From assembly GCA_013150915.1 (NCBI GenBank), contig JAADJE010000012.1, positions 27,820-91,819 on the forward strand: a stretch of 64,000 nt of DNA, given 5' to 3'. Shown here one piece after another: positions 8,379-55,377 of the stretch. Source of the stretch: Gammaproteobacteria bacterium. Its GTDB lineage: Bacteria; Pseudomonadota; Gammaproteobacteria; BMS3Bbin11. The notes under the pieces are model-generated. The model worked only from the letters and a program-made list of their open reading frames with translations. It was not told where the DNA came from and did not search any database. Every line of letters begins with the position of its first letter. Within the stretch, counting starts at the first letter, position 1. The translations under genes and the position numbers were made by a program.

Positions 8379-8437
8379 AATATTCTTTTACAGCGGGGCA
8401 TTATAACCGGACTCAGGATAAAATAATGATATCGTTG

Positions 8438-8505
8438 CACTGCTGTCCCGTTAACCTGATCTTATTTTTCTGTCGTTGTTGTAGTGCTTGGGATGCAGGG
8501 AACCC
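8438..8505. repeat. Partial copy (one terminal inverted repeat plus ~50 bp) of MITE-like element family B; the complete copy is at 54655-54844
   Basis: GCACTGCTGTCCCGTTAACCTGATCTTATTTTCTGTCGTTGTTGTAGTGCTTGGGATGCAGGGAACCC is nearly identical to the reverse complement of 54771-54840. Confidence 0.8.
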
Positions 8506-8741
8506 ATTTATACCTGGAACTTTAGACTTGGAACTTGGAACTATGCCCCTTTTGTGCTATAACCGCGCCTCTTTTCAGGGGTTCTGAATTACGGACGGCC
8601 TGATTTCGAAATACGCTGTCATTTGATGACTTAACTAAAATGATCGTGGGAACACTAGCAGGGCCCGGGTGTTTGAGAGACTGTTTGTCTGTCAAACTGG
8701 CATTGCAACCCATGTGAATGTAACCCGAACGGAGATAGAAG

Positions 8742-9722
8742 ATGTCTAAGATTTCGCTTCGCGATATGCTGGAAGCTGGTGTTCATTTCGGCCACCGTAC
8801 ACGTTTCTGGTACCCCAAAATGCGCCCTTATATCTTTGGTGAGCGTAACCAGATCCATATCATTAATCTGGAAAAAACCCTGCCCCTGTTTGAGGAAGCC
8901 TGTAATTTTCTTGGCAAGATTGCGGCTAACGGTGGTAACGTCCTGTTCGTTGGCACCAAGCGCCAGGCAAGTAAAGTTATTCGTGAAGCAGCGATACGTT
9001 CTGCTTCACCCTATGTGGATCACCGCTGGTTGGGCGGTATGCTGACCAATTTCAAGACCGTACGTAATTCAATCAAACGCCTGAAGGAGCTGGATGAACT
9101 GTTTGAAAGTGGCCAGGCAGATAAGCTGATCAAAAAAGAACGGTTACGTGTCGAGCGTGAACGCACCAAGCTGGAGCGTTCCCTGTCCGGTATTAAAAAT
9201 ATGAATGGTCTGCCAGATGCACTCTTCATCATCGATGTGAAATATGAGTATATCGCCATAGCAGAAGCTAAAAAGCTTGGCATTCCTGTGGTTGCCGTGG
9301 TTGACACCAACTGTAAGCCAGAAGGTATCGATTACATTATTCCTGGCAATGATGATGCGATTCGCTCTATTCGTCTCTATGCTGATACGATTGCCGATGC
9401 CATTATTGAAGGACGCCATTCTGTTGCAACTGCCCCAGTGGTTGCAGCCTCTGATGACTATGTCGAAATGGATGATGCTAAGGCTGAGGCACTGATAGAG
9501 AAAGCGAAACCCTCCAGCAGTACGGTTAGCGAAGCAAAGAAAGCAGATGTGAGCAAAGCTGATTCTGAAGAAGTCACTGCGGATGCAGTGCCTGTTTCGG
9601 AGGAAGCAGCGGCAGTTAAAAAAGCGGTCAAGAAAAAGGTTGTGAAAAAGAAAGCGGTGAAGAAAAAGCCTGTAAAAAAGAAGGCTGTCAAAAAGGTGGC
9701 AGCGAGTAAGGACGACGCGTAA
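8742..9722 (+). CDS. rpsB: 30S ribosomal protein S2 with a lysine-rich C-terminal extension
   Basis: The N-terminal ~240 aa are canonical S2. Followed by tsf. The last ~85 aa are Ala/Val/Lys repeats ([23 protein letters not shown]). Confidence 0.92.
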
Positions 9723-34352: not shown

Positions 34353-34561
34353 TTTTTTTCTGGCGGGTTTCTTTTTTGCTTGATTCCTTGAATTGGTTTG
34401 TATTTTTCATTCTTCATGGACAAGTGACTTTCTTTATACGGATGAAGAGAATAACCAGAGAAATCTGCTCCGGATTTCTACTGCTCGACAGGCAAAAGGG
34501 GGTGGAAGATCAAAGACTAATGACCCAAGCTTAGAGACTAAAGACCAAATTATTCTTCTTT

Positions 34562-50049: not shown

Positions 50050-50949
50050 ATGACAAAAGCTTTCCGCGCAGGTTTTATTGCCATACTGGGGCGACCAAAT
50101 GTAGGCAAGTCGACATTATTGAATCGCATCATAGGCAAGAAAATCAGCATTACATCGCCTAAGCCTCAGACCACACGGCATCGTTTACTGGGTATCTGTA
50201 CAACAGAAGAACATCAAATGGTTTTTGTGGATACGCCCGGGGTACATCTTGGTAGCAAACGCTATATCAACCAGATCATGAATAAGACCGCCGCGAATGC
50301 TCTGATAGGGGTTGATGTTACGCTACTGATGATCACATCTGAAGGGTGGAAGGAAGAGGACCATCATGCCCTGAAGTTGGCACAGCAGGAAAAAATGAAT
50401 CTGATAGTGTTGATTAACAAAATTGATAAATTGAAAAATAAGAATCAACTCCTGCCATTGATTGAATTCACATCACAACTACATGAATTTAAAGAGATTA
50501 TCCCCATTTCCTCTGCCTATGGAACTAATGTTCAATCATTAATGGATGTTTTACCTGAGTATCTTCCGGAAAGTCCTCTCCTGTTTCCTGAAGGGCAGAC
50601 GACAGATAAAGGTGCTCAATTTATCATTTCAGAAACTATAAGGGAGAAACTTTTTCGCCAACTGCGCGATGAAATTCCTTATACACTTGCGGTAGAAATC
50701 CAGCAGTTAAAGATGACGGAGTCACTGATACGGGCAGAGACTATCATCTGGGTAGAAAAAGAGAGTCAAAAAGGCATAATCATTGGTAAGAAAGGTGAAA
50801 AATTACGTACTGTCGGAACGCATGCCAGGGAGGAACTGGAGTCCTATTTTGAACGAAAAGTATTTCTACAGCTTTGGGTGAAAGTGAGAGAAAACTGGTC
50901 TGATGATGCAGTAATGTTACGCTCAATTGGATATATAGAGGAAGAATGA
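50050..50949 (+). CDS. era: GTPase Era
   Basis: N-terminus AGFIAILGRPNVGKSTLLN (G1 motif) beginning at ATG 50050. C-terminal KH domain. Confidence 0.92.
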   Translation: MTKAFRAGFIAILGRPNVGKSTLLNRIIGKKISITSPKPQTTRHRLLGICTTEEHQMVFVDTPGVHLGSKRYINQIMNKTAANALIGVDVTLLMITSEGWKEEDHHALKLAQQEKMNLIVLINKIDKLKNKNQLLPLIEFTSQLHEFKEIIPISSAYGTNVQSLMDVLPEYLPESPLLFPEGQTTDKGAQFIISETIREKLFRQLRDEIPYTLAVEIQQLKMTESLIRAETIIWVEKESQKGIIIGKKGEKLRTVGTHAREELESYFERKVFLQLWVKVRENWSDDAVMLRSIGYIEEE

Positions 50950-51683
50950 GAGTACAGTCACAGCCAGCTTTTCTGTTGCATGCCAGGCCCTTTCGCGAAA
51001 CGAGCCTGATTATTGAAGTTTTTACCTGGCAATACGGTCGAGTCGGTTTACTTGCCCGTGGCGTTAGAAACCCGAAGTCCCGCAAACGTGCCCTGGTTAT
51101 GCCGTTTCAATCACTTTTGCTGGGTTGGAGTGGTAAAGGGGAGCTCCCCCTACTTACCAGCATTGAGGCTACTGGCCATGCAAGAGAACTGGCCGCTGAG
51201 CAAAGATACGCCGCTTTTTACCTGAATGAATTACTGCTGAAATTGTTACATCGGCATGATGCACATGAAAGCCTGTTTGATTATTACGGTAGGACTCTTG
51301 ATGAAATCTATCAGGGTGTTCCGATACAGCATGCGCTGAGACGATTTGAAAAAGAACTTCTCAGTCAGAGTGGGTATGGCTTGATACTGCACCACGAAGC
51401 AGGATCATCTCGGCCTGTTGTAGAAAACGGCCGATACAAGTACATTCCAGAGCAAGGGCCAAGACTGGTCTCGCAAACGGTAAGGGAATATCAGCCTGAA
51501 GAGCAGGGCATCTACATCAAGGGTAAAAGTTTACTGGATTTTTACCATGAAGTATTTTACGACAAAGAGAGTTTGAAAGAGTGCCGTAGACTGATTCGCT
51601 ACCTGATGGACAGACAGTTGGCGGGTAAACCGTTACATAGCCGACGGGTGTTTCATCAGGTATTATCGGGACTTCAGTCGTAG
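50946..51683 (+). CDS. recO: DNA repair protein RecO
   Basis: 245 aa. N-terminal AFLLHARPFRETSLIIEVFT motif. Overlaps era by 4 nt. Confidence 0.88.
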   Translation: MRVQSQPAFLLHARPFRETSLIIEVFTWQYGRVGLLARGVRNPKSRKRALVMPFQSLLLGWSGKGELPLLTSIEATGHARELAAEQRYAAFYLNELLLKLLHRHDAHESLFDYYGRTLDEIYQGVPIQHALRRFEKELLSQSGYGLILHHEAGSSRPVVENGRYKYIPEQGPRLVSQTVREYQPEEQGIYIKGKSLLDFYHEVFYDKESLKECRRLIRYLMDRQLAGKPLHSRRVFHQVLSGLQS

Positions 51684-51697
51684 GTCAAAATCATGGA

Positions 51698-51804
51698 GAC
51701 CAAAGACCAAAGACCAAAGACCAAAGACCAAAGACCAAAGACCAAAGACCAAAGACCAAAGACCAAAGACACCAAAGACCAAAGACCAAAGACCAAAGAC
51801 CAAA
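51698..51804. repeat. Heptanucleotide tandem repeat (GACCAAA)x15; the eleventh unit carries a 2-nt insertion (GACACCAAA)
   Basis: Direct reading of the sequence: ten perfect units, one 9-nt variant, then four perfect units, between recO and pdxJ. Confidence 0.95.
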
Positions 51805-51830
51805 GGCTAAATAACGTAAACCGTAAACCC

Positions 51831-52568
51831 ATGACTAGATTAAAACTCGGTGTAAATATCGATCACGTCGCCTCTATCCGTCAGGCAAGAGGAACCGCCT
51901 ATCCTGATCCTGTGCAGGCCGCTTTCATTGCTGAGCAGGCCGGAGCAGATAGTATTACCTTACATCTTCGTGAAGACCGCAGACATATTCAGGACAGGGA
52001 TCTGGCCATCATGCGGCAGACCATCCAGACACGTATGAATCTGGAGATGGCCGTTACCGAAGAGATGATTGGGCTCGCCATCAAAACGTTACCGGAAGAG
52101 GTTTGTCTGGTGCCAGAGAAACGCGAGGAGCTTACTACTGAAGGTGGACTGGATGTGCTAGGGAATTTGGCCAGAATAGCTACAGGGGTTAAACGTTTGC
52201 ATGATGCGGGTATCCTGGTTTCATTATTTATCGATCCTGATCCAGAACAGCTTGATGCCTCCATTAATGCTGGGGTAAAGGGGGTTGAATTACATACTGG
52301 GCATTTTGCAGATGCCGAGACCGATGAAGCGGCTGACCGAGAGTTTCAATCGATAGTGGAAGCCGTCGACTATGGGAAAAGTAGGGGGCTTAAAGTCAAT
52401 GCAGGCCATGGCCTGCATTACCACAATGTTGAGCGGATAGCGGCAATCAGGGGTATATCTGATCTAAATATTGGTCATGCTATTATCGCCCGGGCTGTTT
52501 TCACAGGCTTGTCGGCAGCTGTGCGTGAGATGAAGGCTCTGATGGACAAGGCCAGTATGATGGTCTAA
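51831..52568 (+). CDS. pdxJ: Pyridoxine 5'-phosphate synthase
   Basis: [27 protein letters not shown] is a canonical PdxJ N-terminus. An in-frame ATG at 51693 would add an N-terminal extension encoded by the heptamer repeat, which is considered unlikely. Confidence 0.9.
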
Positions 52569-52579
52569 ATGTGCCTGGT

Positions 52580-52864
52580 TTATTTCTTTGCCGGTGGCGG
52601 TTGAAAGCCTGCTGGCATTTGTCCCTCTTCACCTTCACCAAATAAAAAACCTTGCATGTGTTGTTCAATAATTTTCAGGGCCCGAGGATCAGCGGTACTG
52701 AGTTGCATTTCATTCATGATGATCGTCAGGCGATCCAGCCATTGACGCCAGCCTTCAGCTGAAATATTTTCATAGATTCGAATACCAAGCTCGCCTGGGT
52801 GGGGAACATGTTCCAGCCCGGGCGCTTCTTTCTTTAGTACCTGACAGTTAACCATTCTACTCAT
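52580..52864 (-). CDS. yggX: Fe(2+)-trafficking protein YggX
   Basis: 94 aa. Aligns along its length with E. coli YggX (MSRxxxCxxLxxEAxGxxxxxxPGELGxRIY...). Confidence 0.8.
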   Translation of the reverse strand: MSRMVNCQVLKKEAPGLEHVPHPGELGIRIYENISAEGWRQWLDRLTIIMNEMQLSTADPRALKIIEQHMQGFLFGEGEEGQMPAGFQPPPAKK

Positions 52865-54654: not shown

Positions 54655-54844
54655 CTGAGACACTGCTGTCCCGTTAACGCCACATCGTCATGCCGGGCTT
54701 GACCCCCGGTATCCAGTAAGTCGTTGAAACCGCTGGATTCCGGCCTGCGCCGGAATGACAACCCCATTGGGTTCCCTGCATCCCAAGCACTACGACAACG
54801 ACAGCAAAATAAGATCAGGTTAACGGGACAGCCGTGACACTGAG
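54655..54844. repeat. Complete MITE-like element family B (~190 bp) with ~24-bp terminal inverted repeats (CTGAGACACTGCTGTCCCGTTAAC ... GTTAACGGGACAGCCGTGACACTGAG) and an internal palindrome
   Basis: Terminal inverted repeats read directly from the sequence. Internal perfect palindrome ATTCCGGCCTGCGCCGGAAT at 54737-54756. Partial copy at 8438-8505. Confidence 0.8.
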
Positions 54845-54984: not shown

Positions 54985-55377
54985 ATGGGTGAAGCGGCTT
55001 TTCAGACTGAAATTACGGGCGACATGATGTCAATTACAGATACTGCACTTGAAAAAATGGGCGAACTGCTTGAGCAGGTGGAAGAAGATGTTGCTGGCAT
55101 AAGAGTATTTATCCACGGAGGCGGCTGTAGCGGTCTTTCCTATGGTATGACGTATGCCGAGGAAAAACTTGAATCTGATAGCCAGCTTGGTAACGATGAC
55201 TGCAATATACTTGTTGATCCTATCGCACTTGGCTACCTGAAGGGTTGTGAAATCGACTTTCGTGAGGGGCCAACAGGCGCCAGTTTTGTTTTTAATAATG
55301 TGTTCGAGTCAGTGGGTGGTTCTGGTGCCTGTGGTGGTGGCGGTGGTGGTTGCGGTGCCGGCGGTTGTGGCGGCTAA
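54985..55377 (+). CDS. HesB/IscA-fold (A-type carrier-like) protein with an atypical Gly/Cys-rich C-terminal tail
   Basis: IRVFIHGGGCSGLSYG and ILVDPIALGYLKGCEIDF match the IscA/HesB core. The C-terminus is ...FNNVFESVGGSGACGGGGGGCGAGGCGG instead of the usual CGCG-x-SF ending. Confidence 0.6.
   Translation: MGEAAFQTEITGDMMSITDTALEKMGELLEQVEEDVAGIRVFIHGGGCSGLSYGMTYAEEKLESDSQLGNDDCNILVDPIALGYLKGCEIDFREGPTGASFVFNNVFESVGGSGACGGGGGGCGAGGCGG

Follow-up and report, generated by a model that had tools for sequence, protein, structure and literature searches.

What role, if any, is played by a tandem array of GACCAAA heptanucleotides that occupies the spacer between recO and pdxJ is the question raised by the stretch of gammaproteobacterial DNA analyzed here (contig JAADJE010000012.1; the whole stretch of 64 kb is termed the window in the following). 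The original prediction had regarded the array as a candidate phase-variable or contingency switch that might extend the PdxJ protein at its N-terminus, or as a modulator of an operon-internal promoter. Orthologous recO-pdxJ junctions were recovered from 16 further distinct relatives (loci denoted by L numbers); an outgroup of distant relatives with at most 67% PdxJ identity was obtained from a scan of species-representative genomes with PdxJ. According to these comparisons, the tract is probably a tolerated, hypermutable heptamer leader that exerts at most graded effects on pdxJ, and this explanation is ranked first among those weighed below.

Anatomy and turnover of the heptamer array

The core array (51698-51804, plus strand, 107 bp) has the structure (GACCAAA)10 GACACCAAA (GACCAAA)4, in which GACACCAAA is the sole unit of 9 nt and carries an AC insertion. 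The 15-unit repeat as originally described was confirmed by inspection of the sequence, by Tandem Repeats Finder (TRF; 51697-51805, period 7, 15.3 copies, 96% matches, score 200) and by comparison with shuffled sequences: Fourteen of the 15 matches of the window to the two-unit probe GACCAAAGACCAAA (at most 2 mismatches) lay inside the tract, the shuffle mean amounted to 0.62 matches, and 15 matches were attained in 0 of 100 shuffles. Within the 64 kb, a self-identity of at least 75% over 28 nt (periods 5-11) was encountered at the GACCAAA tract only. The plus strand of the tract consists of 61 A, 31 C, 15 G and no T; it is, thus, G-poor with a C/G ratio of 2.07 and presents a CC dimer every 7 nt. 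Decayed units continue the array on both sides. The 5' units GTCGTAG GTCAAAA TCATGGA (51677-51697, plus strand) keep the 7-nt register of the core array; the first of them, which is the first heptamer unit of the spacer, holds the recO stop codon TAG (51681-51683), and the third holds an upstream ATG at 51693. The decayed 3' flank GGCTAAA TAA CGTAAAC CGTAAAC CC (51805-51830, plus strand; CGTAAAC x2.1 at 51815-51829) reaches the pdxJ start without a Shine-Dalgarno (SD) sequence. No Rfam family was detected at the tract at gathering thresholds or at E values up to 1, and a literature search for GACCAAA/TTTGGTC repeats yielded nothing relevant.

In the relatives, the same site was occupied by GACCAAA or by other motifs in the same 7-nt register (GTTTCAA/TTGAAAC, GTKTTCA/CTGAAAA, GTCGTGA, TAATCCT, CGTAAAC, GTTCCAA). 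The closest of them, L089 (RecO 99% identical, DNA 98.2% over 16 kb), carries (GACCAAA)9 without the AC insertion and without GGCTAAA, and possesses an extra GTCGTAA. At 91% RecO identity, GTTTCAA GTTCCAA GTTTCAA precede (GACCAAA)5 in L090, and (GTTCCAA)8 is followed by (AAACCGT)3 (AAAACAT)2 in L172. The lineages with 90% RecO identity comprise L166/L167 (BMS3Bbin11) with an array of 103 nt that is fully decayed and 7-periodic still, and the L081 group (L081/85/87/91) with (GTTTCAA)2, 31 nt, (TTGAAAC)4 and then T + ATG. GTKTTYA units followed by their inverted complement are present in L092 (RecO 89%), (GTTCCAA)3 and CCGTAAA-like units in L088 (85%), and an array including (TAATCCT)3, inside which the contig ends, in L157/158 (82%). 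At 79% RecO identity, L093 contains (GTCGTRA)5 GTCTCAA GACCTAA (GACCAAA)5 GACC and then the ATG, and L094 (GTKTTCA)4 and at least 10 CTGAAAA/CTGAACA units up to the contig end inside the array. Units of the CCGTAAA type in L088, L172 and L099 are homologous to the 3' flank of the window. In summary, at least 3 perfect units or decayed remains (L166/L167) were found in every lineage with a RecO identity of at least 79% and a recovered spacer; the members with 74-78% (L095-L100, L159-L165) have spacers of 28-48 nt with the proto-repeat AAGACTAAAGACTT or an AAnnnnn periodic pattern.

The autocorrelation of the spacers had its maximum at lag 7 in 15 of the 15 tested (0.43-0.88), and for those of at least 48 nt, including the decayed ones of L166 and L099, the observed lag-7 value was matched by 0 of 2000 shuffles. 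All spacers are A-rich (32-53%; at least 38% except in the L081 group) and G-poor (8-23%), and the pdxJ-proximal array presents the A-rich strand version in all cases. Outside the recO-pdxJ spacer, TRF revealed essentially no period-7 arrays in about 95 kb of the relatives' flanks. Among the arrays of at least 3 copies in 132 distant loci (1.17 Mb), period 7 was the commonest; none of these loci harbored a heptamer array between recO and pdxJ. The assumption of the original prediction that this spacer normally comprises a few bp proved incorrect, as its median length is 30 bp in 122 distant relatives (5-95% range -8 to 181).

The window and L089 share 98.1-98.2% of their DNA over 16 kb, yet they possess 15 and 9 units, respectively; a lack of length variation between strains, which the original prediction had named as a refutation, was therefore not observed. 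Three indels between the two fall into the 147-bp spacer of the window, as compared with about 12 gap openings in the rest of the 16 kb. The length changes were +7 and -51 nt (6 units, AC and one unit), i.e. steps of whole units except for the 2-nt AC insertion; the first decayed unit is doubled in L089 (GTCGTAA GTCGTAA). Neighboring sub-arrays are 1-3 substitutions apart and keep the register (L093: GTCGTAA > GTCTCAA > GACCTAA > GACCAAA), a pattern that would be expected if units are duplicated, acquire point mutations and expand again by slipped-strand mispairing. Furthermore, the 27-nt block TCAGTCGTAGGTCAAAATCATGGAGAC across the recO stop codon (window 51673-51699) recurs as its reverse complement in the L081 group (L081 3754-3780; 24 of 27 nt identical, alignment score 39, shuffle maximum 22), where it is bracketed by (GTTTCAA)2 and (TTGAAAC)4. 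The reverse orientation of this block between inverted arrays therefore indicates that the L081 lineage inverted its spacer core. A conserved mini-ORF (open reading frame) MILTY[D/G]* on one strand of the block was rejected as a by-product of the homology.

Several of the relatives' contigs end inside arrays (L082-84, L086, L094, L157/158) and one ends 3 nt past the recO stop codon (L156), as is expected of repeats longer than the assembly k-mer. The arrays break short-read assemblies in eight contigs from different samples, and copy numbers in metagenome-assembled genomes (MAGs) may be underestimates.

The recO gene itself (50946-51683, plus strand) codes for 245 amino acids with the Pfam domains RecO_N and RecO_C (protein P0001 is 100% identical). 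RecO has 245 amino acids and ends with QS* in the window, L089, L156 and L166 lineages (GLQS* in the window, L089 and L166); in the other relatives it has 244 and ends with LS*, LG* or LT*. Since the stop codon resides inside a unit and the protein ends differ between the lineages, array turnover has remodeled the RecO C-terminus.

Translation start and leader of pdxJ

The pdxJ gene (51831-52568, plus strand; 245 amino acids) encodes PNP synthase (Pfam PF03740, E = 7e-101), a housekeeping function. The tract is indeed, as the original prediction stated, in frame with both the upstream ATG (51693-51695, plus strand; 46 codons upstream) and pdxJ, resulting in an ORF of 291 amino acids (51693-52568) that runs from ATG 51693 through the tract into pdxJ. 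However, a stop codon is impossible on the plus strand of the tract because T is absent, and the minus strand is open as well (two listed frames, the third by unit inspection). The tract is stop-free by composition, and its openness is therefore uninformative; in consequence, only the phase of ATG 51693 relative to pdxJ (138 nt, in frame, with a prior of one in three) conveys information. Two minus-strand ORFs of 46 and 52 amino acids across the tract were rejected as automatic products of stop-free repeat frames. A reading frame shared by the recO stop codon, ATG 51693 and pdxJ was encountered in the window only.

The postulated N-terminal extension of PdxJ by TKDQRPK-type repeats was not supported. 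Positions 1-234 of the Pfam PdxJ profile correspond to residues 51-284 of the 291-residue ORF, i.e. the domain begins at residue 5 counted from ATG 51831, and most relatives share the start context (M-[TS]...). Among the other spacer types, 11 contain a stop codon in frame 3-42 nt upstream of the pdxJ ATG and no in-frame ATG (two of them with only TTG, 9-15 nt upstream of the pdxJ ATG); this includes GACCAAA-bearing relatives, in which the array is split from pdxJ by TGA (L090) or TAA (L093). The upstream in-frame ATG is limited to the species of the window; in the window itself it is preceded 8 nt upstream by a weak AGGT (-3.8 kcal/mol), which is replaced by TAAGT in L089. Judged from these comparisons, ATG 51693 is probably not the PdxJ start, and the protein likely starts at ATG 51831. 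With a conserved start 3' of the tract and stop codons in the relatives, the gain or loss of a unit therefore would leave the PdxJ frame unshifted, in contrast to what had been assumed for a change by a single unit. Occasional use of ATG 51693 may occur within this one species. For genome annotation, such arrays may mislead gene callers into a false 46-residue repeat extension on PdxJ.

The pdxJ gene does not possess an SD sequence: The duplex energy with the anti-SD is +0.5 kcal/mol compared with a median of -5.9 kcal/mol in the window, in which most other genes have an SD. Among 13 clade members, 12 have values of -0.9 kcal/mol or weaker, compared with a median of -5.9 kcal/mol in 123 distant relatives, 85% of which are at -4 kcal/mol or stronger. 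The leader of the window folds like its shuffles (z = -0.03), the tract being unpaired in the centroid structure, and those of L090 and L088 have less structure than their shuffles (z = +2.0 and +1.3). In a promoter and terminator scan, no promoter-like site was found in or beside the tract; the lone terminator-like match was located inside recO (51630-51647), and the scan counts equaled the shuffle expectation. Since the sense strand of the tract is T-free, it is unable to provide a -10 box. The proposed role of the array in promoter spacing is, thus, without support.

According to the explanation ranked first, a heptanucleotide microsatellite that is presumably prone to slippage fills the untranslated leader from the recO stop codon to the pdxJ start. 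The spacer of the clade is built of 7-nt units in one register, which would duplicate, mutate and re-expand, so that close relatives differ in copy number, motif and orientation. The pdxJ gene, presumably co-transcribed with recO, has lost its SD in the clade and lies behind an A-rich, G-poor leader; as this leader does not pair with itself in the window, any A-rich heptamer array would be tolerated. Any effect on translation would probably be graded and would involve SD-independent initiation of the ribosomal protein S1 or standby-site type, whereby the array length could tune the standby binding and the distance or coupling to the ribosome terminating on recO; ON/OFF switching by frameshift is not part of the proposal. 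SD-independent initiation on an unstructured A-rich leader is known for Escherichia coli rpsA and has been discussed for the TAACTGA repeats of Beggiatoaceae (PMC4679880).

A number of observations weigh against this explanation. In the L081 group, L092 and L094, the inverted arrays form perfect hairpins directly before the pdxJ start (L081 3736-3817, L092 1196-1272, L094 8736-8867; -28 to -52 kcal/mol, z = -3.8 to -9.1), which reach from 2-3 nt past the recO stop codon to within a few nt of the pdxJ start. The locus therefore does not conserve an unstructured leader, and a function would not be conserved in form. The clade members at 74-78% RecO identity are almost without an array. In addition, the same motifs recur elsewhere in the window and before start codons in viral contigs, which a purely local slippage does not predict. 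Finally, despite the difference of 51 nt, the upstream ATG keeps the frame of pdxJ in L089 as in the window, as would be expected if the extension mattered; the chance of this would otherwise be about one in three.

The hairpins of L081, L092 and L094 are candidates for translational coupling or for RNase III cleavage; rnc, the RNase III gene, is located three genes upstream in the same gene string.

Alternative explanations

A purely neutral microsatellite, i.e. a mutational hot spot without effect on the expression of recO or pdxJ, at which arrays arise from proto-repeats, grow, degenerate and give way to others, is a possible explanation, albeit clearly a less probable one than the tolerated leader with graded effects. 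It would account for the turnover of motif, copy number and orientation among close relatives, for the distant clade members that manage with a spacer of 28-33 nt and only the proto-repeat AAGACTAAAGACTT, and for the fully decayed array of L166/L167. Less readily explained are the presence of arrays or their remains in every lineage with a RecO identity of at least 79% and a recovered spacer, the A-rich strand version of the pdxJ-proximal array throughout and the clade-wide loss of the SD. This persistence, strand preference and SD loss suggest some constraint on the composition of the leader.

A more far-reaching proposal, which we regard as unlikely, is that 7-nt-periodic, A-rich and G-poor arrays replace the SD and that the spacer represents the natural allelic series of a widely shared device of translation control. 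In this case, a general binder of single-stranded RNA (ribosomal protein S1 or a Csp-like protein) would recognize the arrays, the same device would operate in cyanobacteria, Beggiatoaceae, Bacteroidetes and phages, and the inverted-array hairpins, as a second layer, could be opened by the terminating recO ribosome or cut by RNase III. If true, copy-number slippage would provide a heritable adjustment of vitamin B6 synthesis.

Still less credence is given to an array of binding sites for a heptamer-recognizing RNA- or DNA-binding regulator, by which pdxJ would belong to a post-transcriptional regulon; regulators of this type have been proposed for the TAACTGA repeats of Beggiatoaceae and for the Nostoc heptamers. 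The lack of an SD at pdxJ, the occurrence of GAYYAAA and TTGGAAC arrays at two other intergenic sites of the window and the position of (GACCAAA)4-8 ahead of start codons in L154 and L153, two of the three viral contigs, would agree with such a regulator; in Nostoc PCC 7120, the GAC(C/T)AAT x8 array of recO touches the start codon, and its authors postulate a binding partner (bioRxiv 10.1101/2022.06.06.494920). On the other hand, at least 7 motifs replace one another at this site among relatives with RecO identities of 79-100%, which counts against a binder because a sequence-specific reader would not tolerate it. Moreover, only one strong array and two decayed ones were encountered in the 64 kb, and essentially none beyond the spacer in about 95 kb of the relatives' flanks.

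The tract could also be thought to load Rho as an untranslated, unstructured RNA of more than 100 nt with C in excess of G, whereby longer arrays would lower the read-through into pdxJ. Sites of Rho utilization (rut sites) are C-rich, G-poor and unstructured, and the tract resembles them in its C/G ratio of 2.07, the absence of U, a CC every 7 nt and its unpaired state; with a PdxJ start at 51831, it would also be untranslated. However, this property would be absent from relatives whose arrays form hairpins or are T-rich, and strong polarity would be costly, since pdxJ is essential for pyridoxal phosphate (PLP) synthesis. Rho loading is considered improbable.

A phase-variable translational switch, in which translation starts at ATG 51693, adds the TKDQRPK-type extension and is shifted out of frame by plus or minus one unit, is very improbable. 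The in-frame position of ATG 51693 in both the window and L089 and the weak AGGT in front of it speak in its favor, but the openness of the sense strand follows from its composition alone, the AGGT is lost in L089, and the PdxJ domain, the conserved start at 51831 and the in-frame stop codons of 11 other spacer types (L090 and L093 included) all place the start downstream. Furthermore, even with initiation at ATG 51693, ribosomes out of frame would terminate at the TAA codons of 51808-51814, and the start at 51831 would remain accessible; the downstream gene, moreover, serves housekeeping. An assembly artefact of the MAG can practically be neglected: Repeats do often break or collapse in short-read assemblies, as several of the relatives' contigs illustrate by ending in arrays, but 107 bp is less than the length of typical reads, an internal variant unit is present, and independent assemblies from other samples contain homologous arrays with both flanks intact (L089, L090, L093, L172).

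Related repeat classes, host and genomic surroundings

Heptamers are the commonest class of long simple sequence repeats (SSRs) in prokaryotes according to the account given in PMC4679880. The tract corresponds to the long SSRs (units of 5-11 nt; Mrazek et al. 2007 as cited in PMC4679880) in its unit of 7 nt, in a length that exceeds chance, in the polymorphism by whole units between strains (window versus L089) and in polymerase slippage, the presumed mechanism of expansion and contraction there, which is likewise presumed for the window tract. As cited in that source, the class is a descriptive one without implied function, and lineage-wide motif turnover and inverted arrays are absent from its description.

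The TAACTGA repeats of marine Beggiatoaceae, some cyanobacteria and Bacteroidetes (MacGregor 2015, PMC4679880) share with the tract intergenic, sense-oriented heptamers before a start without an SD: TAACTGA sets are located directly 5' of SD-less start codons, some of them overlap the end of the upstream ORF, the strains differ in 7-nt steps, essential or housekeeping genes are among the targets, and translational control is suspected. In the same source, differences between Cyanothece strains are described as mostly 7-nt indels. The window differs in its unit (no TAACTGA x3 array with at most 3 mismatches was found in the 64 kb), in its 15 copies compared with the usual 2-6 in BOGUAY, in the many motifs at one orthologous site and in its host. 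The BOGUAY genome contains 169 TAACTGA sets (PMC4679880); here, the 64 kb contain one strong array and two decayed ones. With respect to the proximity to the start codon, the perfect array of the window ends 26 nt before ATG 51831 with decayed units in between; in the relatives L081 and L093, only 1 and 4 nt, respectively, separate the array from the start.

The heptamer class of cyanobacteria is established under the name of short tandemly repeated repetitive (STRR) sequences. These have in common with the window that non-coding heptamer arrays lie beside start codons and that several unit families exist per genome (in the window, the intergenic families GACCAAA, TTGGAAC and CGTAAAC). The closest counterpart is the array at recO of Nostoc PCC 7120 with its unit GACCAAT, which differs from GACCAAA in one position (bioRxiv 10.1101/2022.06.06.494920). 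In contrast to the window, the host is a cyanobacterium, classically a heterocystous one, and the Nostoc array lies upstream of recO over promoter/operator elements, whereas that of the window is positioned downstream of recO in an operon-like gene string.

A heptamer SSR upstream of a start codon with variable copy number is also known from Haemophilus influenzae, in which the (ATCTTTC)n repeat in the 5' untranslated region of hmw1A/hmw2A is phase-variable and forms a hairpin processed by RNase III (PMC12721329). Such a hairpin is not present in the window but in L081, L092 and L094, where it would be a plausible RNase III substrate; furthermore, the hmw repeat controls a surface adhesin, whereas the gene downstream of the window tract is the housekeeping pdxJ. 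Contingency loci comprise surface, host-interaction or restriction-modification genes, among which pdxJ does not fit, and their repeats alter the reading frame or promoter geometry. Here, the copy number does vary, but the PdxJ start lies downstream, and no promoter-like site is present. In our reading, the tract is a slippage-prone microsatellite of the long-SSR, STRR or TAACTGA kind rather than a demonstrated genetic switch.

Start-proximal heptamer arrays have, thus, been noted before in cyanobacteria and giant sulfur bacteria without an established function, and the recO-pdxJ locus adds a third, unrelated marine lineage. It overturns nothing; it offers, however, an unusually rich natural allelic series, with about ten alleles at one orthologous site (none, 3, 5, 8, 9 or 15 units, other motifs, and inverted hairpin pairs). 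As all of them precede the same SD-less housekeeping gene, they provide a ready construct series for studies of translation initiation, Rho polarity and RNase III processing.

Based on the protein similarities, the host is a member of an uncultured marine Arenicellales lineage and neither of the Beggiatoaceae nor of the cyanobacteria: LepA is 91-95% identical to 'MAG: Arenicellales bacterium', 94% to 'bacterium BMS3Bbin11' and 75% to 'MAG: Arenicella sp.', and RecO is less than 50% identical to the nearest named proteins outside the clade. A host of the Beggiatoaceae was rejected on the same similarities. The record of one relative bears the title 'marine sediment metagenome'. Exact-protein look-ups of the RecO and PdxJ of the window and of P0001 returned no record. 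Upstream of recO, the gene string comprises lepA, lepB, a DUF4845 gene, rnc and era (from the ORF map and Pfam assignments on the relatives' orthologues). The acpS gene that was expected to follow pdxJ is not found there; the next gene is a convergent Iron_traffic/YggX-like gene (52580-52864, minus strand).

Two further heptamer arrays of the window are located in other intergenic regions. The decayed array GATCAAA GACTAAT GACCCAA GCTTAGA GACTAAA GACCAAA (34508-34549, plus strand; lag-7 identity 0.57, p=0.0004) lies between convergent genes for a THAP4-like heme-binding and a GCV_T-domain protein and is among 5 such places of the window. The short array CTGGAAC TTTAGAC TTGGAAC TTGGAAC T (8514-8542, plus strand) is situated between the divergent map (M24 peptidase) and rpsB genes and is followed by an ATG (to 8545) that opens an ORF of 14 codons only; its TTGGAAC is the reverse complement of the post-recO GTTCCAA in L088 and L172. 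Beside the latter array, at 8437-8506, resides one end of a MITE-like (miniature inverted-repeat transposable element) sequence, the full copy of which (54661-54836, 176 bp) carries 18-nt terminal inverted repeats (CACTGCTGTCCCGTTAAC / GTTAACGGGACAGCCGTG) and is placed between an HD-GYP gene and an Fe-S biosynthesis gene. As it is missing in the 98.2%-identical L089, where window position 54660 is joined to 54839, the element was inserted or lost recently. A link between the arrays and this element was rejected, the full copy being without a heptamer array.

In viral contigs of IMG/VR, (GACCAAA)4-8 is present in L153 (4623-4650), L154 (668-695) and L155 (10553-10580). In L154, TAACC closes the array and the ATG follows; the ORF opened by it has a ligase-like KIDG motif and lacks an obvious SD. 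In L153, AAGGAG and a start codon come after the array. Distant proteobacterial contigs contain inverted pairs of other heptamers, i.e. (GTGAAAC)12/(TTTCACT)12 in L127 (16371-16559) and (CAGGATT)4/(GAATCCA)4 in L114 (16258-16345); paired inverted arrays therefore occur outside this clade as well.

Repeats of other kinds are found in coding regions of the window. A 15/30-nt repeat (9618-9695, consensus AAAGCGGTCAAGAAAAAGCCTGTAAAAAAG), the translation of which is lysine-rich, is part of a C-terminal extension of about 100 amino acids of ribosomal protein S2, the Pfam domain of which ends at residue 224 of 326. At 55315-55373, a GGT/GGC-rich repeat occupies the 3' end of the Fe-S biosynthesis gene; the repeats of the relatives differ in unit period and consensus.

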